From Vermamoeba vermiformis (taxonomy: Eukaryota), in the NCBI GenBank assembly GCA_045837725.1, contig JBEWZL010000056.1, positions 434,001 through 498,000 of the forward strand: DNA of 64,000 bases, given 5' to 3'. Under the pieces are notes generated by a model. It had not been told where the DNA came from and ran no database searches. It saw only the letters and a program-made list of their open reading frames with translations. Positions 8,658-61,000 of this stretch are shown one piece after another. A program made the position numbers and the translations under genes. The first letter of the stretch is position 1. Each line of letters starts with the position of its first letter.

Positions 8658-8848
8658 CTGCGTCGGAAAATAACACTAAAGAAAACTGCGTTGTGAATCG
8701 AATTTATCGCAAGCGACGAGTCAACCACACGTCAACGAGATTAAAATATTATTTTTTATATAAAACTATTTTGTGGTATCACTCGAGTGTTAGGCAGCCG
8801 CGAGGAAGAGATCTTTAAAGCAAATCCGCTCAAATATTAATTCAGACA

Positions 8849-10436
8849 ATGGCGACAACAAATGTTGAAAAAGAATACGTGCATGAAGTATATGAAGCTA
8901 TAGCGCCGCACTTCAGCGAAACTAGATATAAGGTGAGTGAAACGAGGACTTGAGAAAATTAATGTAAAAAGCCAAAAAATCTACTAAGGCTCTAACCAGT
9001 ATATTTAATTACAAAATAATATTTTATACTATTATTCTTATTATTTGCAATTTTCGTTGGCTGTGGAACAAGATCTGACCTGCGAAATCTTTAAAATTTG
9101 CTACCAGGCTAATTTAAATAAAAATCACTAATTAATTTTCATTAGCCATGGCCCTTAGTCGAACAATTTATTAAGGACTTGCCTATTGGTTCACTTGTTG
9201 CGGATGTCGGATGTGGAAATGGCAAATACATGGGTGTAAATCCTTTAACTCATTTCACTGGCTCCGATAGGTACGTTACTCATACTAAAAATAATTATTA
9301 TAGCTATAAATTCTGATTTTATTTCTTTAGGAGTTCAAATCTGATCTCGATCTGTAAAGAGCGAGGTTTTGAAGCAATGGTCGCCGATAATTTATACTTG
9401 CCTTATCGAGACAATATGTTTGTGCGTATTTATTAATAATATTACGACGATCATCGTTATTCTAATCGATTTTAGGACGCTGTCATTTCGATCGCGGTCA
9501 TTCACCACTTTTCAACAGTTGAAAATCGTTTGGCAGCAATAAGAGTACGATCATATTAATATAAATAATATTATTATATGCTTATAACGATGCTCGTATA
9601 GGAATTGACGAGGATATTGAAACCTGGAGGAAAATTATTGGTGACAGTTTGGGCCACCGAACAGGTACGCAAACAAACTGATTTATCCTTATTTGGAAAT
9701 ACTCGTCGATATAAATTATGTAAAACGTTAATAAGACCTTTAACGACGCTTTAAATCACTTCTTAATGCGAAGCGTTAAAAATTTCACGAGTTTATTGTC
9801 GCTCGTAGCGGGCTACGTGACAATAGATATTAATTTATTTCCTTATTTAGAAAGGAAAAGTATACGAGGAGCAGGATGTGATGGTACCGTGGAAATTGAC
9901 GAAAAAATTCGATAAAGAATTTCAAGAGAAGAAATACACGAAGAAAAATAATAATAACAACGATTCTGAGAATAATAATGATGAAAAATCGAATGAAAAT
10001 GCATCTAAAAACGATAATAAGGAAGAAAATAAGACAGAAATTAAAATCGAACAAAACAATAATAATTCGAATGCGGATCTGCCCGTTCAAGAACAAAAAG
10101 AGCCGCAAAACGAAGAAAATACAGCTGCGAATGACGCGGAGAGTAAAAAACAGCGAAATAAATTGCAGAAAAAATTGAAAAGGCAGCAATTAAAAGAACA
10201 AAAACGATTGGAGAAGAAAAATATTTACGAAGACGAGCCTGTCGTCGAAGAAAAAGTATTTAAAAGGTAATATACCATATATCTATACTACGCATACGTA
10301 TTAATATTTTTCTAGATACTATCATATGTTCGTCAAAGGAGAGCTGGATGGGCTCGCATCCAACATTTCCGAACTTACAATCGAAGATTGCGCTTATGAT
10401 CACGACAATTGGTACTTAAAGGCTTTAAAAAAATAA
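8849..10436 (+). CDS. TRM9: tRNA (carboxymethyluridine34-5-O)-methyltransferase, Trm9/ALKBH8 methyltransferase-domain type
   Basis: [65 protein letters not shown] and YDHDNW across spliced exons. An N/K/E-rich insert lies at 9940-10230. Confidence 0.9.
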
Positions 10437-10614
10437 AACTCATAGTAATTTTATTAAACTTAGCATTTATTTACCAACGCCACGACCTCGTTAATTATTG
10501 CAACTCCGCACGAGTTCACCGAAACTGCCTGCAAATTTTGTTTTTTTCTCGCCAAAACCAAACCACGATGCAGTTATTTCTTATTCGTTACAGTTCAAAA
10601 CACCGTAAGGCTGG

Positions 10615-12990
10615 ATGTCGACTCCAGGTAATAATTAATTAATTCAATGCAAAAATTAGGCTTAAGATAATTGCTAAAATTACGTAGTTACTGAAACAAA
10701 GTAGAAAAAAATTATTAATTATTAATTTAAAAATTAACCGCGGAAATTATCTAATCCTGCAGCTAACATCTTTTTGAAGCTCAATCAGACGTAGACGAGA
10801 TTCTTCGATTTTTTTCAGGCTGCACGGCCCTTGGAATAGAGGAAGGGCGTTATTTTTCGGCTACAATTCCACGCGAGGCGACCACACGAGAGATCTGCGA
10901 CGCTGCTACAAAAGTTCTCGCCATACCAGCGTGCGACGCGACTAAGCACTCATGGGAACTGCCGTGCTTATTCAACGGCTACGGTACAGGAAAGACTTTC
11001 ACCAATTTTTTCGCCACATCTTCGATCCGCGACTACTTGGCACGAAATCCGGTAAGGAACTAAAACAATTATAAAATCTAAATGTCTTATTAATCTGAAT
11101 TTAATAGTTGGAATATCCTGAGCTCAGAAATACGTTTGCAAATTGTTTTCGTATCTACTTAAAACAACAACCCTGTCAGATCTCGTACGACAATTTCTGC
11201 AGCGATGTACGCGAACAATTAGAGCCCAGTGTCGGATTATATCTCAAGTGGGCTATTGCCTCACAGTTGCTATATCCGCAAGATGATTTTATCATTCGCC
11301 GACCACGCAATTGCGGGTATATGATGCGGCAAGTGGTGAAAGAGGGCTTATTGGACAAGCTGCAGTACCCTGCTATCTTTGCAGCTTTCAGACAAAAGCA
11401 CAACATCGCCTCCGAGTAAGTTCATCTCCGTAATCATTTCGTTCACCGAACTTACTTGTTGTTTAGTGCACCAATTTGGATCTTCATCGCACACGATGGG
11501 ATGCAAGGGTTAACGGGCTACGACACACTTTTGAACCTCAAGGCCAAGTCAGAACCAAACACCATCAGAAATACAGAACTGCATCAGTATCTGATGGAAT
11601 CTATTGCGTTTGCTCAGGCAGCAAAGCAAGTTGGCATTAATGTGCTCAACATCTACTCTGGATCATTCCCACTCTACGTCACAGGGGTCTTAGAGGGTAC
11701 TGGACACCAATGGCGACCACTGACACTAGAGCCAATGTCAGTTGATGATGGCATAAAGCTTCTCTCCACAAAGCACCCACTGTTAGCAGACAAAATGAAC
11801 ACTGGTCCATTTAAACAAATGCTGTCACACCTTGGCAACATACCAGGCTTCTGGAAAGTGCTCTCTGAGATTATTGGCAAGAAAGTCAACCTAACCTTTG
11901 ATGCAAATACACTTGCAGATCTGAAGGAGCAACTAATCAGCAAGGTAAAAAGAAAGGCTCCCACTAGAGAAGTAATTAACACAATTATTTGTAGGTCAAT
12001 TGCATCTTTAGCTCAGAATGTAACCTGAATCTCCTATTGCTGCTTACAATTCAAGCTTGGACTTTTGATGAAGCCAGACAGCTGTTGCCAGCCACTAAAA
12101 TGCTCCATGCCTGTAGCCGACAACATGCAGGACATTCATTTTTACTCAACATGAGCTATTATGTACCTCCCATTCTGCTGCAGAGCCTGGCTGCAAGTTT
12201 TGAAATTGCTATTAAACGAATTGTGGAATACTTTCCAAACAGAATGCTGGCAGGTGAGTTCACATCAGACAACTTTAAAGAGTTCTGCATGGTCTTTTTT
12301 ACCTTAAAATGCAACCTGTTGCTGTCCCAAGGCATTCACAAGGTGTCTGTCAAAGAATTTTTCAAAGGTGCATGGATCCAACCAGAAGCTGTGGACATGG
12401 AAATCATGTTAGCACAAGATAATCACAAAGATCATGCTAAGCTGCACCACACTGATTCAGCCAAACTCCTGTCATTGACAAATGTCAAAACTGTTCTAGG
12501 TGAGGTGCTGGACTTGACAACAGATGCACCTGTGGCCATGCAGATGAGAAAGGATCAAACTGGAATCTTGCTCCTTGCTGATACATTGCTTCAATTCAAA
12601 ATGATGTATTTTGGCATTGGTGACGCTTTTGGGATAAATGATTTATCTTTTGAAAGTGAACAAAGACTGGCAGAGAATAGTCCATTAAGAAGTCAAGTCA
12701 AAGGCCACAAGTTCTTTGTTTACCTAACAAACTGTCAGATGACAAATGATGAACTGAAGAGAAACAACATTCAGCACAGCAATTCCATAATCATTTGTGC
12801 AAATAACCTCAAAGCAGTTTTTTCACCAACATTTGAGTATGCTACAGCCCATATCACAAGCACAGCAGTTGTTTCACTTGAAGACAGAACATCAACTGAA
12901 GAACTGTGCAAACCAAAAAAGCTCAAAAGAAGAAATACTGCTGAATCAGAATGTGATGACAGACAAAATAAGAAGCAAAAGGTCAAATAA
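10615..12990 (+). CDS. Crinkler-type P-loop NTPase with a PD-(D/E)xK-like C-terminal domain (multi-exon; start 10615 or 10568)
   Basis: Walker A LFNGYGTGKT near 10970-11000 and a degenerate Walker B IFIAHDG. C-terminal motifs FKEFC..FFTLKCNLL, VKEFFKGA, LLQFK and FFVYLTN; basic NLS-like tail. Resembles the gene at 35729-38820. Confidence 0.6.
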
Positions 12991-13030
12991 TTTGCGAGGT
13001 TTGGCTGTCTTTGTAACATTTTGTTTTATT

Positions 13031-31846: not shown

Positions 31847-34800
31847 ATGCGGCCACAAGTCATATTATTCGCGTTGCTATTTGCTGCCGTGCTCGCTTGT
31901 GCACATGGACAAGTCAAAGTCAAGTTCAGAGTGTTAGATGGGACTCCAAGCGCAACGAGCGTCGCATCTAAACTCTTAAGCGATTATAACAATGGATTAA
32001 TTAATAGCAAATTTGCATATGAAGTGCTCAGCTTAACAATGGACTTGCAGCAAGGAGCGTATCCGTACCCTCCACGACCAAGAGTTGCTAGCAGCGCATC
32101 TGGAAATTTTCCAGGCTTACTTGCAGTCTGCTCGCTGTTTTATTTCATGACCAGATCAAAATACAGCAGTTTTTGGTTATTTGTTGGCTTGATGCTTTGC
32201 AATCACTTGTCTTCAGCTTTGATCGGAAGTTATTCAAATTGCAAATTATTAAACGACGAAATTCAATATTGTTAACCGGGCTCAAATCCCCCCGTAAACC
32301 GTTTTATAAAACTGTTCAAATTAAATTTAAGTTTTGATTTTATGCAATTGTTTAATTTCCGAAGCGATTTAGAACTTTTTAATTTATTTTGTTGAAAGAA
32401 TTCGATAAATTAAAAATTTTAATAATAATTAAACATTTTAATTAATCAATACTGGCGGTGCGATGCATTGCCCTCGCCCGTTAGCAATAGTAATATCACA
32501 CGTATTTAGGGAAGTATATAATATTTATTTAACGTTGCAATACAAATATACAGTACGATCAGCGGGACAGCTGTTGTGCACTTGTGAGTGTCAGTAGCGG
32601 TGGTAGGTTCACTTACCCAAGGCGCCGTGTATCGTGTGGTTTTGTGGCTTACTTCGTGATTAAACTTTGAAAAATGAACGGAAAAGATTCTGCGGTGACG
32701 TCAAGCTCCTTCCAAATATGGTCAAAATGGCCAAATTCATAGGAAATTCTTGTCCGAAAACTAGAATGACCAATCGTTAGCGAGCTTTGATTCGTTGTCA
32801 CCGCAAGTCATGTTTTTCATTGTCAAAGTCAGCACAAGCCACGTAGCCACACGACGCACTGCACTTGGGTAAGTTTATCGCTAATGACACACGAGCAAGC
32901 AGAGCAACCAGCCGCCTTGAACTGTCGTACTGTGCATTGTAATTGCAACGCTAAATAAAATTACGTTCACTAAATACTAGTGTCTTATTCACTGAAGCCA
33001 CGTGCCGAACGTGACCGCGAGCACCGCTGGTATCAATTAATTAAAATGTTTAATTATTATTAACATTTTAAATTTACAAATTCTTTCAATAAAATGTAGA
33101 AATCGAAGTTCTAAATCGCTTCGCAAATTAAACATTTGAATAAAATTAAAACTTTAATTTAATTTGAACAGTTTTATAAAACAGTTTACGGGGGGATTTG
33201 AGCCCGGTTAACAATATAAATTACATTGGACTATTAAGTAAGTATTTATAAATATAATATGATGCGTCTTTAAGTTGATTTAATTGCTGTAATTTATTGA
33301 CACGAAATTATTTATGCTTTGTTTTGATTTTATTTAATGCTGCTGCTCTGTATTAATTATTAATATTTAGCGATGGATATATTGAAGGTGCTATTGAGGC
33401 TAACGTAGTTGGCTGGATCGGTTTTGGATTCTCTGCTAACGGTTACATGGATAGCGTAAGCATATTTAACGTCCCATATGCATTTAAAACAATAATATGT
33501 CATAACATAAAAGATCTTCGTAATCTAAGAATATCTACATTGCAAGGCACGAATCATTTATTTTTCCGAGCGCTGATCTTGCTAACAAAATCAATCGTTT
33601 AATTTAACAAATCTGCTAATACTATTATACAGGGAGGTGAAGCGCCTGGCTCTGACATATTGATGGGCTATTTAGACCCCAACTCGACTGAGTGCGCTGA
33701 CGGCTGCGTGACAGATTATCATACATTGCAGTACGCGATGCCGATCAAAGACGACGTGCAAAACGTTGACAAAGTGGCTGTAACATTAAGTATGCTATAT
33801 ACCAATAGTTTACAATATCATACCGAAATTTTGATTCAATATTTCAATTTTGGATCTGCTTAGGAGGAACTTCGAGAAAACTTCGATACTAATTTTTGGT
33901 TATAAATAGCTACTGGTCATTTATCCGTAGAATTCCGCAAGCCATTGAACAGCTTTGATACGACGCAAGATCGAGTCATTGACATCAATGCACAGACATT
34001 TATTTTGTGGTCCGCGAATCATCACACCACGCCGAAGAGTCCGACTTCGTTCTCCAAACACACCATTCAAGCGACTCCACCAATCTCCATCAAGTTCTCA
34101 GAGCCATGTAAGTGACACCTGTCATCCATTTTGACACTTGCAAGTCGTGCTAAATGCTTCCTTGTTGCAGCTACATGCGTCGAAGACACGACCGGAGCGG
34201 TGGACGGTGTCATCGAAATCAACACCTCGTTGAAGAATTTTTCAGAGGCAGCGTTTGTAGAGTCTATGGCTAATATTATGGGCATCGATTCTAACCGCGT
34301 CGTCGTTGTCGAAGTCGATGGTACGTGCCACCTAAAATTAACACTTTCCATAAAAGGAAATAGGACTCATCCTTCCATTTAAAAGATGTTTCACCGCCAT
34401 TCTGCCCCGAATGCTCTACTATCGAACTCTTAGCTAGCAATTATTCGATCCCTGCTTCTTCTACGTACTACATGTGCCGCGGATTTGAAGTAAACGTGAC
34501 TAACGATCAAATCATCAAAATTGAACCAATGAAAGATAACACTCTCATTCTCCATCATATGGTACGTCATTGACAAGGTGAATATATTAATGTCCTAATC
34601 AATTGCATCAGCTCTTGTTCTACTCGAGTCAGCCCGTCTCGCTGAACAACTGGACCGCGTGCTTTAGCATGCCTTATAATGCGATGCCAATCTACGGCTG
34701 GGCTCCAGGAGGTGACAGTTTAATCATGCCCGACAACGTTGGCATTACCGTAGATAATGCAAAGCGATACTTTGTTATTCAATGTACGTACATGACACGA

Positions 34801-35573
34801 GATCCGATCCAGAACTAACCTCTATTTTTAGATCACTATTCCAACCCGCAGAGCTTAGAGGGTCTTACTGATAATAGCGGTTTCAAAATATATACCACAA
34901 AGGACTCGCGTCAATATCAAGCTGGTTTGTTCGTGCTAGGATTGCCGCCAGATCAAACACTTCAGATCCCGCCAAACGAGACTGATTGGCATCAACTCGG
35001 TACATGCCCCGAACAATACACTCAATTAATTCAAAATTTCTCGCCGTTGGGAAAGCTGATCGTTTTTGCAACTGGTTTGCACGCACATTATTTAGGCAGA
35101 CAGATCTGGACCTCGCACTACAGAAACGAAACCTTCCTTGGTTATCTCGGCAAAAACGAGTACTATAGCTTCGTAAGTACATATCTATACATCCAGTGCG
35201 TATTTATCTAACAAATATACAAAGAACAATCAACGCTTTGTTGACTTGCAGACTGAGATCTTGCCCGGAGATCGATTAGTCACGCATTGTGTATGGGACT
35301 CGACAGGACGCGAGACAATAACTTCTGGTGGCGAGGGCACTCAGGATGAAATGTAAGTCTAAGTTTAACGTGGATGTGGTGGTTCTGATCTCTTTTTGTT
35401 CTAGGTGCTTAAACGCAGTTTTGTACTATCCTAGCGGTAAGATTAATAATTAATTTGATTGTTACGCCAAGCTAATACTGTTGTTTGTAGTACCTGCGCC
35501 AGGTTGTTACGTTAACCACAGCCCCGGTGAGCGTTGTACATTCCCTTGTTCCGAACTTGATTTTCAATATTAA
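31847..35573 (+). CDS. DOMON plus copper type II ascorbate-dependent monooxygenase (DBH/MOXD1-like), interrupted by an insertion in exon 1; possibly a disrupted allele
   Basis: DOMON motifs YKLHWTINDGYIEGAIEANVVGWIGFGFS and GSDILMG. Copper-ligand motifs ILHHM, FVIQYHY, GLHAHYLGR and QDEMC. The frame is broken at 32270-33213 and restored when the insertion is removed. Confidence 0.8.
32270..33213. mobile_element. Non-autonomous foldback/TIR DNA transposon (MITE-like), 944 bp
   Basis: Left end TGTTAACCGGGCTCAAATCCCCCCGTAAACCG matches the reverse complement of the right end with 1 mismatch in the first ~58 bp. Similarity is high for ~190 bp and patchy further in. Flanked by ATAT at 32266-32269 and 33214-33217. 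No long ORF. Confidence 0.9.
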
Positions 35574-35728
35574 ATTGTAGTGTTTTGTTGATAAGAAATT
35601 GTTATGCCGAAACAGTGCAACGAAATCTATCAATATCAGTAATAATAGTATTTCAATAGTTTTATTTATTTAATAGCTATACAAGTTTGAGTTTTGATTT
35701 AAATCAAGTACACTAACTCTAACAAACA

Positions 35729-38700
35729 TCAAAATTTGATTACAAGACCATCCTGTTCAGTAGAAATGCCAGGCACACGTTGTCTTAAATCATTCCAGCC
35801 ACCAAAGGGTTGTCTCTGTCTTTCTTCAATCATTTCTGCTGCTTTGTTGGCAGTAACACCCTTAAGCTTCATCAGTTTCGTAGTGTCATCTGTGTTGACA
35901 TTGATGGCTATGAATGCTGCAACCTATGGTTAGAAGTGTTGTCAATACGTCAAGTTACTTACACTTAATCTGTGCTACTGCAGCAAGTGAGCGACCATAA
36001 TAGGCTTCCATATTTCTTTTGTGCACAACATACATATTTGGTTTGAGTCTCAAATATGCTGGTGATCTGTTTGAGATCAAGCCAAAGACAAATTTGAAGT
36101 TATACTTGGCTAAGTACTTATCAAACAAGACTTTTGCCTTTTGATATTCACTGTCCAAGTCATGTTGAGTCAATATTGTTGGATTTTGTGAGTTATCATT
36201 GGCCTGAAATTGTTGAAATTCAATAACATCTTCTGACAGCCAATAGAAGGCATTAATTCCAGTAGTGTTTTTGCCATTCAAACACACTGTCTCCATGTAT
36301 GAAGAAGGATGTTTGGATCCATCAACCATTGAAGTCATGAAGTTTGAAGTCATCTTGCCATCAAAGCATGCAGGGAATTGATGCAAGTGCGTTACTGGTG
36401 TAGTAGGTCTGAGCTGTACAGAATAGGTTGCACACTCATCTCCAAATAATGCTCCAGAGTGAAAAGTGCCTAAGAAAAGTGTTAGAATGAGTATTTTAAC
36501 AGTACAATACCTACAAAGTGGAACTGATTTGGTTTGTTCTCCAGAAAGCAAAGTCAATTTGAATGATGTGTACTTGACATTGAATATCTCCCAAGCTGAT
36601 GGACCAATGGCAGTTGGATCATTCCATGAAAACTTGAAGAGATGTGCTGCACAGCCAAAGACCCTTGTATTGTTCTGCAGCCAATGATAAAGTAGGAAGA
36701 AAGGCACTGAAGTTGGCATTCCTTTTAAAGCTTGTGTAGGTTTTTCAGCAAACACATAGCCCTCCTGAGCTGCATGCTCAATAGTCTTTCCACTGGGCAG
36801 AATCCTTTCAGGCTGAACAGGTTGCTTTGCAATGCAATACTCAATGAGGGCCTTTGCATCCTCTGGAACTCTTGCCATCTTGTGCTTTGCCTTGAAAACT
36901 GCATTGTCAATGAATGTTGTGTATGGTAATGTCCACAAGTTCATTTCCTTGTCCTTGTTATTCTTGATATAATCATGAATTGCCATCATCAGATAGTCAA
37001 AAGCACGAGGAGGATTCAACATGTCTGCCACACATTGTCTGAAAGCTCCAGCACATTGCCAACCAGCAAGATACGAATATTCTGGTTTGGCAGCCAATCC
37101 TATTTACTGGTTAGTATTAGTTACTTCTAAAGTATTATTACCATTAAGTATTGTTTGCATATCAGAGAGAGACAACATGGATGGTGAAATGCTAACAGGG
37201 ATGCCCAGATCCTTGATTACAGATTTTAGAGGACTATAGATTGTGCCTTTAATCTTGGTTAGCCAATTCAATGTAGGATGCCTTCTTACCTGCAAATAGC
37301 ACAAACAGATTGTTGCAGTATTCAAGCATTAACTGACTGATTGAAGTTGTGAAATGCTGAAATTTCTGTTTGTTATGGCCATCAGCATAGAGCATATTCA
37401 TTTCATCAATTGGTAAGACAATGTATTTGACACCAATCTTCATTAATCGATCAATCAACAGATCAAGCTGCAAAGAACAGTTAATATGACAATAACCAAA
37501 GAACTCTCATACAGTTAAATACTTGGCCATTTTCTTTGTGATAGTGATGCGTCCAAGCTTAGTACGCCGAAGTGGATAAAGGAAGTACTTCCATATTATT
37601 CTGATTGCCAAAATGCCACTGCAATCTGCACACTTCCAAAATACTTCATCTTCATTGGCTGAAGTAGCTGTTAGTATCAGAAATAAACAAAATGTTGCTA
37701 AACATACTCAATCCACTTCCAAAACTTGTGTACAGTACTGTGCATCTTTTTGGGTTGGTTAATACTTTCTTGAAGTTGCTTTCAAAATCATCTGTATCCT
37801 CATGTTGTTGTGCAGCACATTCCTTACACATGAATGAATTAAAAGAGAAGAGAACTAACACAAATACACAAACCTGTAAAATGTTCAAGGATTCCAAGAG
37901 CATGCGAGTTTTGCCAATACCAGGAGCACCAGTGATGATAGGAATGTGCAGTTTCTCTTTGTTAAACCTTATCGCTCGTTGTGTCTCAACTGCTGCTCGA
38001 TAAATTTGGTTTTTGGTTGGCTCAGGCACACAGTGAGGAAATTGAGCCCCAACAGTTGACAAGACCTGTATCGCATTAGATGAATGTAATACTAACAATC
38101 CTGTAATACGCTTGAAACTTGAGCATTTGGAATTCTGTTGACAACTTTCTTAAGCCAGTTTACGACTGCTTCTTCGGAATTCAAATCTCTGGTAGCAAAC
38201 AATTCGTCGTAGCCGTCCGACCCAGCACTGGCATCACTGGCTTTGCACTCTGTAGGAACGGGCGTCTTTTCGTCACTGCTTCCTTGACTCTTCAACTTAG
38301 GCGTTGTTTGGTGTTCATCTACGGTAATTGAAAGTTCTGCCTTCGGGTTTGAAGCAGATCGTTGAGCGGCAAAGACAAGACGGATTGTTTTGTCGGATAA
38401 CTTCGTGTGACTTTGTAGATCGCGTTCTGAGCTGCTCAACAACTGCTCTAACGTGAATACACTGGCCACGTAGTCTGCTTGCGACGGCGCGATGCCATTA
38501 TTTACTGCCCACTCGCGCACATCTGCAGAGGGTCCAGATTGCGAACCTTGAAAAATAAAATACGAGGTTAGTTAATATCCGAAAAATTAACTCAATAGAG
38601 TGGCTTAGAATTTACTATTTTTGGGTCGCGTTTCCGAACTATTGGCAATAAATTTTCCGGATGCAAATTTTCAGATCAAAAGAGAGAATAATTGTGGATA

Positions 38701-38820
38701 AGTTAGGTAAATTAAAATTATTACCTGATAATTTCTTTTGCCGTTTTGGCGGATTTTCGTCTTCGGAAACGCGATCTGAAACAACATCCGTAACTTTTCT
38801 CTTGCCTCGGGTTAGCACTA
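35729..38820 (-). CDS. Crinkler-type protein: SAM-like header, P-loop NTPase, REase-like domain, C-terminal helix-hairpin-helix (5' end unresolved)
   Basis: NLS-like PPKRQKK; SAM-like VREWAVNNGI...TLEQLL; Walker A IITGAPGIGKT; Walker B IVLPIDE. REase-like motifs AWEIFN, FHSGA, CLNGKNTTGINAF, EFQQFQ and FVFGLISN. Last exon INVNTDDTTKLMKLKGVTANKAAEMIEERQRQPFGGWNDL is ComEA-type HhH. Confidence 0.7.
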
Positions 38821-39042
38821 TGTAAAGACTATTAACCAGCCCGTTGCCGAACAATAAATGTGTATGCTACTTACTGGTGTTGTGCTTGTTCGTAAATTTG
38901 CCTATGCATTGATAAAATTGCCCAGAAAAGTTAGCCCAATTTCTTCGAACCAAGCATTACTTGCCCAGTCCAATAAAACAAACACAACTCACCAGAATAT
39001 TTGGATTATATTATTTGAACTATTTTCTAATTGTGTATCGTT

Positions 39043-42000
39043 ATGTCGTTTACGTTGGCCTCTACCGAAGAAGATCCGATTGAATTACAATTAAAGTAAG
39101 CAAATAATTTTCTTATTGATATATTTGGTACTTCCTTCGCAAATACACGTACATTTTGCTTGAAATTAGAATAAATAAATATTTATTTTTAATTTTTTGC
39201 AGCGAGAATGCTCCGATCCAGCTAGGCCGCACGTTCCTCAATATTCATGATACCAAAGTTAGCAGACAACAAGTTGAAATTTCCTTACAAGACGGCAAGG
39301 TCGTTGTAAAACAGGTTTGTTCGATCAGAAAATGAATCCTTCGATCGGTGTCACTTACAAATATTTTTAGCTTGGTATTAATCCTAGCGTCGTAAAAAAG
39401 CCCGATGGTAAAGCCTGGCTATTAAAAAAAGATGAATCAACGACGTTAGATCCCAACGATCATCTTTTATTAATCGCTACAGCGACTACGGATAAACACG
39501 TAGAATTTAAATTGATCAAGAAAGGAGGTAATTATTATTTTAGTTAAAATTTATAAGATAGATTTTAAATCGGATCTGCAGGCACCAAAAGAAAAATTCA
39601 AGAGGAAGACGAAGCGGATGTGGCTGAAGTTGTGCCTAAAAAGAAGTTTAAAGTCGAAGAAGATTTAAACACGACCATTGAAGACGAGAAAAAAGAAGAT
39701 AAAAACAATAACGAAGCCAAAAATAACGCTGAAAAAAATACTAATGGTGACGCTGTTTACGAAAAAGAGGTACGAGCAAATATTTATGCAATCAAGTACT
39801 TTTACTAATTAGGAAATATTACGTTTAGATTAAAGAGCTGCGTTCTATTCTACCCGAAATCTCGTTAGAAGAGATTCAAACGGCGATTTTATTGGCCGAA
39901 GGATCCGTTGAAATGGCGCTTCAAAGTCTGTTAGATAACAAAACTAAGGCCTCAGAACCCATCAAAGAACCTGCCAAAGACGGTGACAAGAAGGATCAGG
40001 CTAAGAACAATCAAGACGAGAATAAGAAGGACGTTGTTATGGTCGACGATGCACCACCTGCTTTGACACCGCCGACATCACCTTTGCGCGAGGAAAGTAA
40101 CAAAGAAGGGGCCGCTGAAAACAACAAACCGGCCATGTATCGATCGGACTCAGAACTTGCTTTGGAATTGCAACGTCAATGGGAAGAAGAGCTGCGAAGT
40201 AAGTGTGAAAAAGTGTCGCGGATCTGCTCGAACAAAAAAAACTAAATCTTTTTTTCCACTTTAGATGCGCCGCAAGAGTACAGTAACAACGAAGTCAAAA
40301 CAGCACAACAAATTATTGCCGAAGAAGTTGAAAAGTTGACACTCGTGGCCGATAACTGTGGCATGTTTTACGATGAACTTTCGTTCCCAAGTACGTTACT
40401 GACACTTTGATACTTTCATACTCACCCTTGTTCAATATGATCATATTATTATTATGCTATGAGTTATCGTGTTGCTTGTTAACGGGGTTGACTAACAAAC
40501 CGTTCTGTAGCTGCATTTGGAGTTCGCATGGCACTGGACGTGAAATCAATCGATAAATGGAAAGCCAAACAACTCGGCATCAATCCAAGCAAGCCAATCG
40601 TTATTCAGCTCAAGTTCTCGTCGGAATTCACGGACGACAAGGACCCACCAAACTTTTTGATCTTCCAATCGGGCGACAAAGATTTGTCCGCGTTGAGTCT
40701 TAAAGACTACGAGACGGACTTTGGCGCCATGCAATGGTTCTTGGAGACTCGTTTGACCAAAGTTTTGTTGAAGAATTGGGCCAACAAACCTGTCAAGTCT
40801 GTCAAACGCGACGAAGAAGATAAATCGAAGGATAACGATAAAAATAAGCCCGCGCAAGTCAAGGTCGAGAAGAAAGAAGAAAAGAAAAATGCGGCCAAAG
40901 AAGCAGGTGTGGACGAGAACAAATTGAATCAATTGACGGCGATGGGATTCACTGAAGCCAAGTCGATTGAGGCCTTGGTCAAGTGCAAAGGCAATTTGGA
41001 CTCCGCCACTGAAATGCTGTTGACCGGAAAGGCCCCTGCAGCGTAAGTCTTATTCCATATTTGCACGGTTTTGGGCTTTACCTAAAAAGGAAATCAGTAC
41101 TTAAGTCGCGATGGCGCTAATTGTTGTGAATGTAGTGAACCAGAAGACCCGCCAGCAGTGACGCAACTGATCAACATGGGATTCAAGCGCGCTGAAGCGG
41201 TCAATGCCCTCGCAGCATTCAACAACGACGTTAAGAAAGCAGTGGCGAGTTTGTTGGGTGAAGAAGTGCCTGACTCGCAAGAAGAAGTTGCTCCCGTAGG
41301 TCGTCCCAAGCATGGCAAACTGAAAAAGTACGGTCTTGGAAAATACAGCCATGCCAAGGGCGTCAAAGTCAAGGGCGTCAAAAATAGCGATCTTGATGTA
41401 CCACCTTCCGATGAAGAAGAAGACCCGATTGAGGCACTCGGTAAGAACACTGCGGAATAACTTTATTTTTTCATGAACGAGCGGAATATTTATATGACCT
41501 GAACTAACGTTGTCTGAACAGAATACAAATCGGACCAAGAACGATTATTTGCAGACGATGCGCCGTTCTTGGTGCGCCTTTACAACTACATGCTGTACCG
41601 ATTCACGACTAGTCCAAAGCACTGCATGATCTGCGACAAAGAAATCAATCTCGAGACTGGCTACAAGTTGCCTGTTTGCAACAGAAAATGTAAGAAAACA
41701 ATTATTTATTTTTCCTATTTGGGAGATTCGTTTGTCTATTTTTGGCAAATCACGTGACTAACAATAATTCGAACAGCTTGCAATAATGTTTACAATACGA
41801 ATGCCTGCGGTGGTAATATCATCAACGAGATTAAGAACCAGCCTGAAGTCGTCGAATTACTGTTGCATTTGCTGTCGTGCGCTGCGACTGGCAAAAACAC
41901 ACGTGGCTTCAACAGAAACGGCGTCGGATTGGCTCCGAAAACTCACGGCTACGGTCACATGTTCGGTGCTGCTGCAGCAGCTGCGCCAAAAAAGACGTTT

Positions 42001-43216
42001 GAACCATTCCCGCACAATCTTGGTTTCAATTATTCCGATGGCAGCCAAAACATCGATTTGTTGATTAGTACGCTGGAAAAGATTCCTTCCATCAAAGAGA
42101 TGCAAGCGTGTGCCAGCGACGAGCAGCTGAAAGTCATTCTGGACGACATTCATAACTTGTGCTTCCCGCTGTTGAAGTGGGTCATTAGAAGCAACAGAGC
42201 GCATATCAGCTACGTGCCTAAAGAAAAACAAATCGAGGTAAGTTTGGTCAACATTTGGTCAACGCTGGTCAACGCCAGTCAAAAACAAGTTTTTCATATT
42301 ACCTATAGTGGCCTAATTTTTTTACGTTATGTTCTATAACACTTTCATGAACGAGGCGTACTAACTGTCAGATAGTGCATGAAAACGCCGTATCAGTTCC
42401 AATTGGTCAATTCATTCCCCGAGCACGAAAAGAAGTTCTTGGAGTGGAAAGAACAAGCAGCAATTCTCAAAGCCAAACGAGGCCTGGACGACGTTAACGG
42501 CTCGTATTGGTCGTTCCACGGCAGTCCAGTGGAGAACTGGCACTCGATTATTCGTACTGGCCTGCGCTCCGGTTTCGTGCGAGGTATTTATCACGCACAA
42601 CAAGCAATGACGTCGTTGGGCTACATGCAAGTTGGTGTTGGGCAAGCGACTGGCTGGCAGAATGGCAGTTGGAAGATTAACAATCAGATCAGCTGCATTT
42701 CGTTGATTGAAGTTGCTGACTTCCGAAGCGAAAACGATGGCAAGGTACGATATATATATTAATAATTAGTTCTGTGAATTGTGAAAAAATTGCTTGACAC
42801 GTGTCATCGTAATGACACGATATTTTTCACTAAATGTCACCCCGTCAACTTTTTTTACGTCATTAAGTATTACCTTGTACTAATATAGTCATTAGATTAC
42901 GGGAGGCACAGGCAAAGGTGGTCCGGGCCCCATGGGTGCTTATGGTGAAGATATGGTCGTTAATGTCGCCATGATTGACAGTTTGGTCGTCACGCGATTT
43001 TTGTTCTTTTATCCTTCGGGACCAACATTCCAACCTCCTAACTATGGCATGCCGGCATTCGGAGGGTTCGGAGGCTATGGCGCAGCTTATAACCCCGCTA
43101 CTCTGGGTCCTATTGCCAACAAGTTGGGCGTGAAAGATTTTATGTTTATTCCGAAGAACGAAGAAAAATTCGATTATCCGTTTGGCGATTACGAATACAC
43201 CAAGGACGAGAAATAA
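39043..43216 (+). CDS. FHA + CUE/UBA + PARP6/8-like ADP-ribosyltransferase (multi-exon)
   Basis: FHA: IQLGR..LNIHDTKVSRQQV...QLGINPS. CUE-like IKELRSILPE. Two UBA domains (LTAMGF, LINMGF). Cys cluster HCMICD...PVC. Catalytic region YWSFHGSPVENWHSIIRTGL...GIY...SLGY and VVTRFLFFY. Confidence 0.8.
42794..42807 (+). promoter_or_regulatory. Intronic motif TTGACACGTGTCAT, copy 4
   Basis: Exact 14-mer in the last intron of the PARP-like gene. Confidence 0.5.
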
Positions 43217-50798: not shown

Positions 50799-52209
50799 TC
50801 AACACAAGTCAAAGACAAATGTTTTTGGCTTCGGATAAGGGGTCCATAATATCAATTGAGTACCACAAATATAATGCTTCCAACCGATAGCACTTCCTTC
50901 GATATATACGCCACTAACTTCTTGTTTGAACGACATCGGATGCACCGCGAATTTAGGCAGTAGATTAGTATCAGGATGGTCCTTGGAGTATTTGTAATTG
51001 CCTAGTACTTTGAATCTATCTGTTACTGCGTTCGTGGAAATAGTGGCTCGAGTTAATGGATTTTTTTCCGTGTTGTTGTCTATAATTCTATTTAATTCGT
51101 TAGTACGTTGTATATAATACTGATAATATTATTTATACCTATTATAAACAATTTTGTTAATCGTTGCATGCCCTTTGTCGAACTTAAGACTGTATGGTTG
51201 TGGAATGGCGACTACAATCAAATCGGATCCAGGTCTGTCCCAATAATAGACTCTATGATACTCTTCTACCGTTGAAATGTTATGCTCACTTAGTCCAAAA
51301 CATTTAAATCCAACAAAATGCTCCAAAAAAATAAGCTTGTCGTCGATCACGCCTAAAAAAAAATTAGGCAACCATAGAGGACTAATAAATTATTATTATA
51401 ATGCTTACGTTTAGCACAAGGTGGAAGATGGCCGTATGGACTATTATAAGTTTGAATGAGCTGATCTCGTTCGAGATCATAAATTTTGAGTTTCGAAATA
51501 CCGTCTTCTTGAACGAGTAAACAATAATAATGGGAACAAAAGAACCAATTTAGACTATTTAAGTCTATTTTAAGTTCGCTAGCCAATTTAATCCACTGTT
51601 TTGTTCGAAGGTCGTAACGATGCACAAATTCATCCATTAAAAAATAGATGAAATGCTTTGATACCATCAAAACGTGCCTGCCTTTCAATATAGGTATATC
51701 TTCGCTCTCCGTATTTCCTAATTTGAGGCCAAAAGTCATTAAAAATCGGCACATCTGTCTGAAGCTGGATTTGAATTTTGTTTCAAAGACGTAAGGTGCC
51801 TTAGCCAACCATTTAGTCGCTCCAATCGTTAACATAAAAATATGCTTCCACGCCAATTCAGATTTTCGCATTGCAGAAGCACTATAAAACATTAAAAATT
51901 TTGCCGTTGCGAATCTGACCAATAAATAATACTTACAATGCTTTGCACGTGACTGATAAATTAAATGCAGCTGTATATATTTGTTCTTGACGCTCAAACA
52001 TGCTAGATATTTTTGTGAGCCCATCTGGAACAGTTATAGGTCCTTGTTTAAGACGAGCTCGTGTCAGTTCATAAATTCTTTCTTCCTCATCATTATATTC
52101 TTTAAAAATGTATGCGAATATTATTTCTAATATTTCGACTGGGCAATTCTAAAGCGCAACGTTAATTTTACATCCAGAGTTCTTTACGACATACTGCGAG
52201 CCCATCCAT
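50799..52209 (-). CDS. F-box protein with a divergent beta-rich C-terminus (multi-exon)
   Basis: NCPVEILEIIFAYI...AFNLSVTCKAF...LAWK after splicing. The three ORF segments are joined by GT-AG introns. Confidence 0.6.
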
Positions 52210-55031: not shown

Positions 55032-58000
55032 ATGGAGGGAGAGTCGTTAGATTTTGGGGTATTGCGGTATGTCAAATCCAAATCTGTCGAGATTTGGATC
55101 TGAAACGTTGAGCCAACTAATAAAATTATCTTTCCATTAGGGATGTTACATTTAATCACCAAGTTTCACTGGTGGCTCCGTAAGAATTTAGATGTTAATT
55201 TAAGGAAAATAAATAAATAATATAATTTTCTTGGCAGACTTCGTTACACGAGGGTAAAGAATGTTGGTGCCAAATTAACATCGAAAGAAGAACGAAACAA
55301 CAAAATAATCCAGATCGCACAACAGCTTCCTGCAGATCGTCGTCTTTCAGCAAGATCTGTTTATTGGTTCGTTTCTCGTGAGCCTGCAGAAATAATGTAT
55401 CAAGATGCGACTCTATTTTTCTGGAACGAAAATCTCCTATGGCAAGATGCCGAAGGAATTTGTCATCATTTGTATCAAATTGATTTTCATGCCAACAAAA
55501 ACGGGCTTCTCGTGTTCAAATTTCCTAATGGCCACGAAGAGACTGTATTCTGCTATTCGACAACTAACCCGAATATGAACGCGAACAAGAAAAGGAAGCT
55601 GTCGTCAAATGATATTCTTATGGAAGACGAATCTCAATCTGCGGAGCATTACAGCGAACTAAGTTCTCCGATTACATTCAACAACACGAACCAATTTCCA
55701 ATGCAAGTACAAACACCCCCGCAGATACTACAAAATGGCACGCAAGTTGCGTCGAATCGAGCACTTATCGTGAACATACTGCTCTTGGTTCCTGACAACG
55801 ACGAATTCATTAAACTGACCGAAGATGCGCTTATCGAGCTCGGTTTTATCAAAGAAGTTAGCTGCATTGCTAAACAAAGGCTTTATAGCCAGAAGAATAT
55901 GTTAAAGAAGATAAGACATGTTTTGATCTTTCCGTTCGGACGGATGGCTAGAGCATTCAAAGTTCAGGATTATCTTGACTATTCAAGTGAAGTTATCCTG
56001 CTAGTGGAGAACACAGCCGAACAAGCAAATGATTTGATGACTATTAACAGAGTGAACAATATCAACAACCAAGCCAACGAGTTCCGACAATTTTGGGTCA
56101 AGAATGGTCTTCGAGATTTTGGAACAATAGACCTCGATTATCCTACGCTTAATTCTTGCGTCAAATTTTTTCTAACTATGAAGGCTCTTGACGATGTTGT
56201 ACTCGGAGGGGCCAGTTGCAAACCCAACACCTATCCTCCAAATTTCTTGGAATTTCTACTGCAATGGAACAGCGAGAATGCGGATAAAGTAGTACAAAGC
56301 ATCTATCTCTGTTTCAAGTTTGAACAGAACAATGAAGCATTCACCGAGGACGCTGCAATTGCGCTCAAAACTTTCGGAATCGATTTTAATGTTGCTGTTG
56401 GAGTCAATGGCAGTGTGCTAGTTTACACTCGTTGTCCATCTTACACGATTTGGTACATCCTGCATCGCAAGGACGACCTCTTTAACGAATTCAAAAACGA
56501 CGGATTGACAGAAGTCTTCGAGTGCTTTATCAGCGACATTGACGAATCGATGCGACGATCAGATAATGCACAGTTTGTGGAGGAACTGAGCTACATGAAA
56601 GAACTAATGATTATCGATGGAGTGCCGGAACAACCAATCTTAAATCGGTAAGTAATTCGTAGTCGCTTTTCGGAAGATGCTAACGACGTATTTTCTTGTA
56701 GATTCAGAGTTCAAGCAAATAGGAATATTCAACGGCAACATGGCATTATGTTGGATGAAAGAGCCATTAATACAAACGACTTTGGCCTCAATGTTCGATA
56801 CCGATCGCAACTTGAGAAATTAAAGAGCGAGACAGTCGAATGGGCGCAAGCCAAAGCAAGCATCAAAGATCGACTTCTCTTGCTCTCTGATCAGCTGCTA
56901 GAAAATGTGGTTGCATTGATTAGACAGACAAATCATTTTGATGATATCGACGCCGAAGCTCTATTTCCGTACTGCTGGAAATGCTTACCAGACATCTCTT
57001 TCGTACAAGGAAATCGTTTCTCGGTCGACCTTGTCGCCAAAAGCTTCAATGAAGTGAAGGCCAAGTTCGCCAAGCCAGTGGTATCAATCAGCGATGCCAT
57101 CAAAATTTTCACCATGTTGCTTGACCTCGTGATTCAGAAGTCAATCCAAGAAGACGAATTCATCTATTTAAAGAAGACTTATCCAGGAGCAGAGCTAGCG
57201 ATGGCGCTCGGAATGGATAACACTCAGATCTTCTATGCTTTGGCGGATCTGAACGATGAACTTCCACACCCGTCACAGATGTTGCTTTGTACGAGCGCAA
57301 CGAAGAAAGACGACCTTCTTCGCTTCGTGGAATGTGCTTGCTTATTGCCGTGGTCGCTTTTCATTCTGGTTGAAGTCAACAACCTTCGAATGGAAGTTCG
57401 TGCCTCACTCATCGACAGACTATTGACTCTCGAGCAACAAAAGCAACGACACTCATTGAAGCTCGTGTTCACATCTCAAACAGGCATCTCTGGCTTCTCT
57501 TTCATACCAAAGCGAGATGTCACTGCGGAAACGCTTGGTCAAGTGAGGCGCTACTTGGTGAACGGATCAAGGCTCTTCAGGCCAGAAATCGCTCGAAATC
57601 GTTATTTTAAGACGTTGGAGATCGTTCAAGGAAATCCTGGCGAAGGAAAGTCAACTTCAATTCGACAGTATTTTGCGCGACAAAGCATCTACTGCTCGGA
57701 AATACCGTTGCAAGAAGACTTCACTGTTGCAAACTTCATCCACCGAGTGCAAATAGCTGTCGATGATGCTCGTAAGAGTGGTCAGAAGGACGTTGGTATT
57801 CACTTGAACATTCTGCCGTACATCGATTTCCCTCTTGTCCACGAGTTCTTGTATTCGTGGATGCTCTTTGGTGTGATTTACGACAGCAACATTGGTGGCA
57901 TGTACCAGCTGCCAACTGATTTGAATTGGCACGTCCTCGCGGAAATTGGCAGTGCTCCAGCCGAAGACAAAGAATACGGAAGCTACAATAGCCCTGCCAA

Positions 58001-61000
58001 AGTGTTGACCGCTCTGCCAGCGTTGAACTTTGTGGCTGAAAAGAAGGACAGACTGCTTAAGAAGCTGGTGTTGGACGACAACATTCGCTTGGCTTGTGCG
58101 TTCTACCATCACTTCCACAACAGCAATCAGGTCACCACAGCTCACATCATGGCTCTCGTGCCCGTAGCAAACGATGATGCTGCTTACAAGATTATTGCAC
58201 AGATTGTCCAACGAGAGCTAACGACTCTTGGTGAGCATCGTAATTTGTTCATCTTTCAACGCATGTTCCTTCACTTGTTGGCAGCTCGATGCAAATGGAT
58301 CAAGTCCTACGCTGAGCGATTGACTGTCTTGGCTCGAGAGTTGGCAACTCCTGACTACGTTATCCCAATCGAAGAGCAATTCTTCTTCAAGCAGTTCATG
58401 ACGTATTTCATCACCGAGGTCGCGCACTTTTGCAAAGCAAACATCAGCTTGAATATCAAGACACTGCCTGTAATTTCACTTTGTGAGGCCCACTCGTTCT
58501 GTTTTGTTGACTGTCAAGGCGATGGTTTCAAAGACAAGGCAAAGGCTGGCTCGCTGCATCTGACCGGAATCCACGAAACAATTCAGAACCCTAATGTCAT
58601 CTTTTCTGCTTTGGCACTGTCATTTGGCATCAAAGATACACGACACATGTTCAACGTCATTCGACAACAACGGTCCACCCTATCTTTTGATTTCGTTGTT
58701 CGGCTATTGCTTCTCAACGACAGAAGAGTTGCTGGTCAGAACATCATATTCGAAGGAGACACGGGCCTTGGAAAGAGCAAATGCCTTGAATTATACGCGT
58801 TGATACTCAACTGTAACACTGACTTGGTTCCCGACCTAATTAGTGATACAGCGCAATTCATTTCTGACAACATTCTTCGAGAGGATGGAGCGATTAGAAA
58901 TCCCGCTTGGAAGAAACTCTATGATGACCTTAACACGGGCAATCCTTCGGCCAACAAAATAATGTCCGCAATCCGTGAAGTTTGCAGCGAACGAAGGCTT
59001 GCAGTAGAGAATCAAGAAGTAGGGTTCAAATTTGTGGCAAGTCGTTTGCTGCAATTCATTCGCCAAATGCTCAACAAGCACTCGTTGATTGAGTTGACAC
59101 CGGTCTTGCGAAGAGTTTTGAAAAAGACAACCGAGGCAGTGAACACAAGCGAATTAATGCTATTGGTGGAAGAATTATTGAACGCGAAGATTTGTAGTTT
59201 ATTCCACAAGATCATTATGCATCGTGGAATTACAGCCAAACAACTCCGAACAAAAATCCAGAAACTCATAGCGCTCAGTATGAGAATTTCGAGGACTAAC
59301 CCAGACGTAAAATTAGTCGTGTACATCGATGAATTCAACACAACTTCGGTAAGCCTTCTCGTTTTGAGTGATATCGTTGTTATTAACTATTATTCAGATC
59401 ATGGGCATGGTGAAGAGCATTTTGTTCGATCACCGACTTGACGGAGAGCTCTTGCCGTCAAATATTTTCTTCGCTGCATCAATGAATCCGTACACCGTGA
59501 AGAAGACCTCCTATGAAATCAATTATACTGGACTAAAGAACAACGCAAGTTCATTGCCCTTCATTGTCCGACCGAATCCGCGGTCTCTTGGTTTGCTTGC
59601 GGTTGCATTGCCTGACTTTGACCAAGCCCAAGAGGAGCGATTCTTGACAGTCCTCAGCAAGACGAGAGACGATCTTGGTAGCCCAGAAGAAATGGAAATC
59701 GTCAAGGACTTCCTGTTGGCGAGTCAAAATCAACTGCGGGCTGCCAACATGGAGAGAATTCATGTGTCAATCCGAGACATCATGCGAGCCATCGATTTGT
59801 TCTTCTACTTCTCCAAGACGCCTGCAGGAGCAGCTCTACTCGGATTGGCCATAGATGACAACTCTTCTCAACGATTCTGGCTTTCGCTGTTCATGGCATG
59901 CAACATCGCTTACCGCATTCGATTGGCAGCAAGAAGTGATTTGCGCAGTGACTTACTCGCAATTTACAAAGCTTTGTGCTTGGCCAATGACTACCACGGC
60001 GAATCAATTGAGGATGTAATAGAACGATGCTACACTCACCTCTACAAGTCAACAGCAATACCCGATGGCATTGCTCGCACAAAGACTTTGATGGAGAATC
60101 TGTTCGTGCTCGTCACCTGCATTGACGCAAAGATTCCTGTGATGATTATTGGCCCAGCTGGCACATCGAAGACTCTCAGCTTCACTATTGCAGCAGACAA
60201 TATGCTCGGCGAAGCGTCGGCAAAGGAGCTTTACCGCTTGTGCAGCAAAGTTCATCCTTTCCGCTACCAGTGCTCCCTACATTCGACCGATACAGAAATT
60301 GATAATATCTATCAATCAGCAATCAAATACCAAAAAGTCATTGAAAGTCACGCTATTAAGAACACTGAGCGCAGTACAGTGTTTTTGGACGAAGCCGGCT
60401 TGCCCGACGACTTTGAAATGTCACTGAAGGTGTTGCACTATCATCTAAACGACCCAGTAGTATCGTCGGTTATAGTCAGCAATCGAATTCTGGACGCTGC
60501 AAAGACAAGCAGAGCTGTCGTGCTGCAAGTGCATCCAACGCTCACTCAAGAGGATGTGTACGCGTTAGCGAAGGGCAGTTTTGCAGTACCTGAATCCGAA
60601 TATAACAGACAACTATTCACGGCTCTTGGCAGTGCGCTTTTGAAGATCAACAGCGTTACAAAAGAATTTCATGATGGTTTCTTTCAGCAGCGCGACTTTA
60701 TCTATTTTCTACGCTACTTAAGAAGATATTCTGTGATCGAACACGACCTTATTCAGTTAACGCCAGAGCTTCTCATCAATGCTTTGGAGCGTAACTTCAA
60801 CGGCATTCCCTTCAACGTGTTCCGCAAGATCGTACAATTGTTTATTGAAGAGTTCAATCGCTTTATGATGCACAAAGAAGCTGCTTGGGATGTTGATAAG
60901 ATCGTTGGCTCTTTGAAGAACAGAACGATTCAACTAATCGAGGAGAGCTTGGCAGAGACTGTCAAACCTGACGAGAATCCCAATTTGGCACCTTTCCGTT

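Follow-up and report, generated by a model that had tools for sequence, protein, structure and literature searches.

How does an intact protein-coding gene come to lose nearly all of its CpG dinucleotides over most of its length, at a locus that is otherwise rich in them? The question is raised by a stretch of 64,000 nucleotides of the Vermamoeba vermiformis genome (GenBank assembly GCA_045837725.1, contig JBEWZL010000056.1, positions 434,001 to 498,000 of the forward strand), which we refer to as the window and in whose numbering all positions are given. The window contains two CpG-depleted blocks, designated islands 1 and 2. Island 2 (35622..37972, no strand) lies over gene 2, a minus-strand gene for a P-loop nucleoside triphosphatase (NTPase) with a restriction-endonuclease fold and a helix-hairpin-helix (HhH) motif, and island 1 (11522..14496, no strand) lies over much of gene 1, a distant homolog of gene 2, and over an F-box gene. 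In our assessment, island 2 is probably the footprint of long-term symmetric CpG methylation, which would have covered the body of the transcription unit and spared the ~0.9 kb next to the promoter, and of the deamination that came after it. The window presents a small, sharply delimited set of genes with a mutational history unlike that of their neighbours, visible from the sequence alone, and the family to which the affected genes belong is toxin-derived and has undergone expansion in arbuscular mycorrhizal fungi and their relatives.

CpG loss over the body of gene 2

The depletion of island 2 is both deep and abrupt. A preliminary description had reported about a dozen CG in some 2.3 kb, with none in 36421-36960, and the exact counts agree with it: region 35650-37950 holds 12 CpGs in 2301 bp, an observed/expected ratio (o/e) of 0.145 where the window as a whole has 1.12, and 36421-36960 holds none, as part of a CpG-free run from 36390 to 37006 (616 bp). 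Island 2 carries 5.1 CpG/kb and the remainder of the window 49.4/kb, a loss of ~90% that is balanced by an excess of TpG and CpA. Judged by CpG spacing, for which the window median is 15 bp, the limits of the island fall between 35621 and 35778 on one side and between 37905 and 37973 on the other, and all 14 gaps longer than 150 bp between CpGs (among the 25 largest gaps) lie within the two islands. Overlapping 2.3-kb windows placed outside the islands (n = 517) never fell below an o/e of 0.94 (mean 1.21, standard deviation 0.14), as compared with 0.11-0.15 in the islands. In addition, the Poisson probability of 12 or fewer CpGs in 35650-37950 is 8.9e-29, with 100 expected at the background o/e, and 2000 mononucleotide shuffles of the same region gave a mean of 82.6 CpGs and a minimum of 55. 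The CpG deficit of island 2 is therefore not a product of chance.

Gene 2 is an intact gene, despite the loss of CpG over most of its length. Its coding region (35729..38875, minus strand), established by tblastn with a homologous protein and by reading of the sequence, comprises 11 exons encoding 851 aa without an internal stop. Exons 1-6 are 38875 (the A of a split ATG), 38817-38725, 38546-38110, 38065-37874, 37822-37708 and 37667-37513, and exons 7-11 are 37467-37290, 37246-37142, 37099-36515, 36469-35963 and 35916-35729 (stop included), all on the minus strand. Nine of the introns are 40-57 nt long and one is 178 nt; all are of the GT..AG type, and in most of them a branch site of the CTAAC type closely precedes the acceptor. 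The homolog used (P0007, 816 aa, from a protein search) is colinear with the minus strand from 38523 to 35732. The start codon itself is split by a 57-nt intron, with its A at 38875 and its TG at 38817-38816, and an ATG at ~38909, upstream of this start, opens a short overlapping reading frame.

The edges of island 2 take on meaning against this gene structure. The 5' part of gene 2 (37973..38875, minus strand), which encodes a basic start resembling a nuclear localization signal (NLS) and a helical N-terminal region, has normal CpG (40 CpGs in a coding portion of 624 nt, o/e 1.12), as the preliminary description had indicated in placing the return of CpG at ~38000; we observed recovery from ~37973 upward. 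The 5' edge is exonic and coincides with the codons for Walker A, GAPGIGKTR (37904..37930, minus strand), ~0.9 kb from the gene 2 ATG, and CpG density recovers over ~300 bp. The 3' edge lies 60-110 nt past the stop codon, at the transcript end, between two convergent 3' ends. An AATAAA-type element (35661..35670, minus strand), ~60 nt past the stop codon (35731-35729), is the putative polyadenylation signal of gene 2, and the last exon (35729..35916, minus strand) encodes the HhH motif (Pfam HHH_3) and the stop codon. Beyond the edge, CpG is normal up to 35621, so that the neighbouring monooxygenase gene keeps its CpG, as had been described.

The dinucleotide composition of the islands indicates what replaced the missing CpGs. 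Compared with CpG elsewhere in the window, the islands (5.1-5.4/kb) have lost 44/kb; TpG is raised by ~28/kb and CpA by 22-31/kb, so that TG and CA together are up by 50-59/kb. GpC o/e is unchanged (1.27-1.28 in the islands vs 1.25 elsewhere) and TpA o/e is lowered (0.50-0.64 vs 0.76); apart from CG, TG and CA, both islands have a profile like that of the rest of the window. The surplus is evenly shared between strands, with 213 TG and 212 CA in island 2 and 271 TG and 293 CA in island 1 (P 0.38). Such a balance is the prediction of methylation on both strands, and the composition points to C-to-T change at CpG on both strands. Repeat-induced point mutation (RIP) of the Neurospora type, which converts CpA to TpA, has a different signature: in the islands TpA shows no increase, while CpA and TpG, which RIP would lower, are up. 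RIP also acts on duplicated DNA, and the 64 kb of the window hold no duplicate of either island.

The loss of CpG has been filtered by selection on the protein. The six introns that lie wholly inside island 2 contain no CpG, and the 3' untranslated region (UTR) of gene 2 is depleted as well; in both, the depletion is as strong as at synonymous sites. Mutation, not codon choice, would therefore lie behind the loss. Within the 1932 nt of gene 2 coding sequence inside the island, eight of the 11 CpGs occupy codon positions 1-2 (all of them in arginine CGN codons), three occupy positions 2-3 and none positions 3-1, as compared with 9, 13 and 18, respectively, in the 624 nt of 5' coding sequence (Fisher P 0.003). 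Over all three island genes, positions 1-2 hold 16/24 CpGs against 21/82 in CpG-normal exons (P 0.0004). CpG has thus gone where its loss was tolerated and has been kept where an arginine would change, which argues for a high CpG mutation rate combined with purifying selection.

The gene 2 protein and the link to island 1

Sequence searches alone gave a partial view of the gene 2 protein. Pfam recognized only the C-terminal HHH_3 (2.8e-6, 27.8 bits against a cut-off of 27) and weak AAA/STAND-type matches at the P-loop. With a profile of the close gene 2 family, a search of 1.84 billion representatives yielded 80 proteins at E up to 1e-3. Close relatives of the protein share 72-85% identity with it, and the named distant relatives come from Rhizophagus clarus, Gigaspora margarita, Paraglomus occultum, Haplosporangium sp. 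and one amoeba, Willaertia magna. A 37-row family alignment displays Walker A, Walker B and a motif E560...D657...Q671-x-K673...E693; among non-gap rows, K200 is conserved in 33/33, D320 of Walker B in 34/34, D657 in 31/33 and K673 in 29/30. A search of the protein atlas with a gene 2 open reading frame (ORF) was uninformative (best score 0.76).

The nuclease part was approached through a structure model of ORF 35955-37103 (predicted local distance difference test score 86.5, predicted template modelling score 0.87). In a wide VIA-align search, model residues ~151-380 matched AF1548 (Z 8.9, root-mean-square deviation 2.6, 109 aligned), VC1899 (Z 7.6) and R.BspD6I (Z 7.0), and further matches included FokI, Can2, Card1, MspJI and Hjc; at least 27 of the 50 rows listed bear the title of a nuclease. 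For residues 1-150, the match was to the helical region that follows STAND/AAA+ ATPases. Foldseek against the PDB with the same model gave no match at E up to 0.001. Although the Z scores are middling, the uniformity of the VIA-align matches gives weight to the prediction that gene 2 carries a restriction-endonuclease fold of the PD-(D/E)xK type.

The gene 2 copy retains its Walker motifs (A, GAPGIGKT; B, IDEMN) and has an incomplete nuclease motif. In the restriction-endonuclease-type motif region (36204..36254, minus strand), codon 36254-36252 encodes N in place of the family D657 and codon 36206-36204 encodes Q in place of K673. D657 and K673 may be catalytic residues, to judge from the modelled fold, and these two replacements suggest that the gene 2 copy is nuclease-dead. 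The near-invariant lysine of the family motif is missing from gene 1 as well, and the reading frames of both genes are intact.

The preliminary description had called the gene a Crinkler-type NTPase plus restriction endonuclease. For the C-terminal module this holds, as it is homologous to proteins that bear the Crinkler header: PF20147 scored above its cut-off in 4/29 long relatives scanned (P0027, P0038, P0040 and P0054), and the C-terminal HHH_3 is present in most of the 29. For the header it does not hold. PF20147 had no match at E up to 0.05-0.1 in the N-terminal ORFs of either gene 2 or gene 1, and none was found in P0007, the full-length relative of gene 2. With the header absent from both, the two genes do not count as Crinkler effectors in the strict sense. 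The likeness to Crinkler (CRN) effectors thus lies in the NTPase, the restriction-endonuclease fold and the HhH motif, and the difference in the missing header, the basic NLS-like N-terminus and the two replaced nuclease-motif residues. The family is reportedly transposon-derived and patchily distributed.

Island 1 (o/e 0.15; limits by spacing between 11521 and 11607 and between 14393 and 14497) repeats the pattern without repeating the sequence. It had been claimed that the two islands are independent instances of one pattern, and they do share their signature (o/e 0.15 and 0.14) with no similarity between them by blastn or tblastx. Gene 1 (10767..12990, plus strand), whose introns include 11416-11466 and 11945-11994, encodes the P-loop NGYGTGKT; its normal CpG ends at 11521, beyond which depletion continues to the 3' end. 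A frameshift considered near 11972-12012 was ruled out by the 50-nt GT..AG intron 11945-11994. Its relationship to gene 2 is distant. Compared directly, the two families look unrelated (probability 1.3% with shallow profiles; E 0.002 over 46 residues by BLASTP), and the relationship emerges only with a deeper gene 2 profile (A3), which hhalign aligned over 523 colinear columns to gene 1 and its relative P0009 (probability 98.5%, E 3e-15). A cluster of eight sequences at 90% identity or more has P0009 at its head. In the hhalign register, gene 1 has KMM (12560-12620) where P0009 has EMK; Walker A is present, and Walker B reads DG where P0009 reads DE. The protein atlas placed a gene 1 ORF (0.95) with an unnamed, mostly Mucoromycota cluster at low recognition (1438), which we take as a lead only.

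The edges of the two islands can be compared despite the distance between the genes. The 5' edge of island 1 lies ~0.76 kb from the start of homology with a full-length relative (P0093), after Walker B. Thus both 5' edges stand at a similar distance from the gene start (~0.8-0.95 kb) and at different places in the protein, gene 2 having its edge at Walker A and gene 1 past Walker B, so that a rule based on the transcription unit fits better than one based on the sequence family. In addition, the coincidence of edges with transcript ends, together with their position ~0.9 and ~0.76 kb from the starts, indicates that the edges follow transcription units.

The F-box gene (13243..14283, minus strand; Pfam F-box 3.8e-6) lies wholly inside island 1 and is convergent with gene 1. 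Its coverage means that the mark is not confined to the NTPase-restriction endonuclease family, to which the preliminary description had tied it. What stands of that claim is that 2/2 family members in the window lie under its 2/2 islands; profile scans of all six frames of the 64 kb found no further member. The link is qualified by the F-box gene and by the small number of cases, and on two cases it is suggestive. Two other genes had been cited as non-depleted contrasts, and their composition bears this out (o/e 1.25-1.34 at 50.5-52.5 kb and 1.02-1.19 over the large ORFs at 55-64 kb), but their labels were not confirmed: in the supposed F-box gene at 50799-52209, ORF 51356-52033 has no Pfam match, and the large ORFs of the supposed RNF213-like gene have a weak AAA_22 match only.

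If the family link is true genome-wide, CpG valleys would offer a cheap map of the targets of host methylation, and the marked genes would evolve faster, as methylated CpG mutates quickly. If it fails, the locus would be one more case of the known methylation of lineage-specific genes.

Probable methylation and competing explanations

In the explanation that we consider probable, symmetric 5-methylcytosine would long have stood at the CpGs from ~0.9 kb past the gene start to the transcript end. Methylated cytosine would deaminate to thymine, turning CpG into TpG on one strand and into CpA on the other; selection would keep the CpGs needed for the protein, mainly those in arginine CGN codons; and the first ~0.9 kb beside the promoter would stay unmethylated and retain its CpG. 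The host would handle gene 2, its distant paralog at 10.8-13.0 kb and the adjoining F-box gene in the way that some fungi handle transposons and lineage-specific genes. That methylation is the cause, that it is present today, and the reason why these genes were chosen are points that we infer.

Transcript data bear on how such a mark would act. Run X5 comes from a relative with a different label; its contigs show splicing at several introns of the adjacent monooxygenase gene and also hold gene 2 sequence. One piece over 36590-36980 differs at nine of 391 letters; of two joints, one passes over the 36514-36470 intron of gene 2 and the other is at the 37707-37668 intron; and the exon 1/2 junction at 38817 is matched by a loose end. 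These pieces and joints indicate that an ortholog or near paralog of gene 2 is transcribed and spliced in the relative. RNA runs X18-X20, with a same-species label, have reads that are 90-99% alike and none at 99% or above, with a depth of 0-7 in the flanks and none over 35304-38973; as they come from a diverged strain at very low coverage, they were used neither for nor against expression of gene 2. The match of only 90-99% over 32001-43000 also suggests that the species label spans quite diverged strains or cryptic species.

Several observations weigh against long-term methylation of the gene body as we have set it out. In the F-box gene of island 1, depletion extends all the way to the start and spares no 5' kilobase, so that the three genes do not follow a single gene-body rule. 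Simple silencing is hard to reconcile with the spliced transcript of a relative. The asymmetry of arginine losses relative to P0007 is not significant (6/13 to Q, C or H in the island part, against 2/11 in the reverse direction). Finally, metagenome contigs scanned with alignment A1 and with P0007 yielded no relative, and the CpG-to-TpG direction in this lineage would be read from composition alone.

A hypermutation of duplicated gene segments that prefers CpG, such as that of basidiomycetes, would also produce C-to-T change at CpG with a surplus of TpG and CpA, and would make the island edges the edges of duplicates. C-to-T hypermutation biased to CpG or TpCpG is described for basidiomycete repeats (PMC3318451), and for Rhizoctonia solani AG8 such hypermutation is reported to affect both its repeats and its genes (PMC4014442). 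Here the family could be multi-copy, considering the relatives of gene 2 at 72-85% identity and the cluster of eight around P0009. In addition, survivors preceded by a pyrimidine are few: among the 28 surviving CpGs of both islands, YCGR accounts for 3/28 against a background of 24% (P 0.01), and RCGY for 13/28 against 23% (P 0.01). However, this bias is asymmetric between strands (RCGR 11 vs YCGY 1), which makes it weak as a sign of enzyme preference, and a context preference read from the survivors was rejected for this reason. The process is tied to repeats, or genome-wide between nuclei, in the accounts cited above, whereas the window has two blocks bounded by transcription units and no duplicate of either island within its 64 kb. 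The F-box gene has only two relatives in the protein search (96% identity, in a public assembly, and 61%); the edges sit at transcript ends and at a constant distance from the start, and do not correspond to recognizable homology blocks; and the genes are intact under selection, whereas repeat-induced mutation usually destroys reading frames. We consider this hypermutation distinctly unlikely. Gene conversion or ectopic recombination from a methylated paralog or repeat array, which we hold to be very unlikely, would make the edges the ends of conversion tracts. The sharpness of the 5' edges (~70-300 bp), their position within exons and the existence of close relatives of the family agree with it, but island 1 crosses an intergenic spacer and the F-box gene, so that one tract would have to span two unrelated genes, and both 3' edges coincide with the ends of transcription units.

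An origin of the islands as foreign DNA from a CpG-poor source, whether by horizontal transfer or as an integrated virus or mobile element, is highly improbable, even though the family is reportedly of transposon origin with a patchy distribution and its relatives occur in both fungi and an amoeba. The 5' edge is inside an exon, and P0007 is colinear across it; no terminal inverted or direct repeats were found flanking either island; the dinucleotides other than CG, TG and CA resemble those of the window; and the introns are of the host type. The chance of selection against CpG in transcripts, or of mere accident, is close to negligible: introns and UTR are depleted as much as synonymous sites, constrained sites preferentially keep CpG, which is the opposite of what such selection would leave, and the probability of the deficit is ~9e-29. 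A more far-reaching version of the methylation explanation may also be proposed, in which the host, whose intron signals and protein relatives are suggestive of a fungus, has a targeted, gene-body-like methylation that picks Crinkler-type NTPase-nuclease genes, and whatever shares the same convergent unit, and leaves them transcribed. The marked copies would be those without the nuclease lysine, and the mark would then represent the domestication or taming of a toxin-derived selfish family, not ordinary transposon silencing. We regard this version as unlikely; were it true, CpG o/e valleys would be a genome-wide readout of the family members that the host recognizes.

Comparable marks and the surrounding genes

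Methylation confined to a minority of genes has precedents in fungi. In Rhizophagus irregularis, high CG methylation with a profile like that of transposons is reported for 18% of genes, against next to none in most genes (Dallaire et al., 2021, PMC8647823); the methylated genes include orphan genes, transposon-domain genes and crinkler-domain genes, the last making up 0.4% of them. The likeness is that a minority of genes is marked, with crinkler types among them, and distant relatives of gene 2 come from the same fungal group. The difference is that methylation was measured there, whereas the window offers a footprint of CpG decay alone, with 2/2 window members affected, the 5' ~0.9 kb spared and a G+C content of ~40%. 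Similarly, 5-methylcytosine at CG in Phycomyces blakesleeanus is reported on repeats and silent genes, a small part of an otherwise unmethylated genome (Lax et al., 2024, PMC11258239). There, too, the mark is confined to a small part of the genome and falls on transposons and some protein-coding genes; its methylated genes are unexpressed, whereas a spliced transcript of gene 2 or a near paralog exists in a relative, and the frame is kept. Island 2 is most likely a clean, strongly decayed example of a mark that is already known in some early-diverging fungi.

More distant parallels are instructive mainly for their differences. In plants and invertebrates, gene-body methylation falls on broadly expressed housekeeping genes, with a milder depletion and two classes of CpG o/e. 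Gene 2 and gene 1 would resemble this type in that the 5' end is spared and the body marked to the transcript end, and in being expressed, as the spliced contigs of a relative suggest for gene 2; they differ from it in being lineage-specific, in an o/e as low as 0.14 and in their association with an F-box gene whose 5' end is not spared. The co-occurrence of gene-body methylation and CpG depletion in plants and invertebrates is mentioned in PMC12695648. In teleosts, AACRNL is described as a Crinkler-like selfish gene with an ADP-ribosyltransferase toxin domain, silenced by H3K27me3 (PMC12957317). It shares with the present locus a Crinkler-derived gene in a non-pathogen and a locus under epigenetic silencing, but its toxin domain, its histone mark and its animal host are different, and it has no bearing on CpG decay.

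The genes around the islands are of several kinds. The gene convergent with gene 2 encodes a DOMON and copper type II monooxygenase (33357..35560, 3' end approximate, plus strand; Pfam DOMON and Cu2_monooxygen). It resembles dopamine beta-hydroxylase, a family that is uncommon outside animals, and at least eight of its short introns are confirmed by spliced contigs. On the other side of gene 2, ~2 kb away, 40492-42336 (plus strand) holds ORFs with a UBA domain (3e-9) and a weak match to the N-terminal region of ARTD15/PARP16 (1.2e-4). Farther along, 55221-63927 (plus strand) contains four nearly contiguous ORFs (476, 929, 1343 and 176 aa) with a weak AAA_22 match only and a CpG o/e of 0.88-1.19, the 176-aa ORF having 0.88. 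Upstream of gene 1, a gene at 8819-10270 (plus strand) includes a methyltransferase-like motif, VADVGCGNGKY, in ORF 9146-9316. The AT-rich stretch at 9000-10500 has CpG over-represented (o/e 1.8-2.0), and ORF 9851-10270, rich in Asn, Lys and Glu and positioned just upstream of gene 1, reaches an o/e of 2.23, the maximum of the window.

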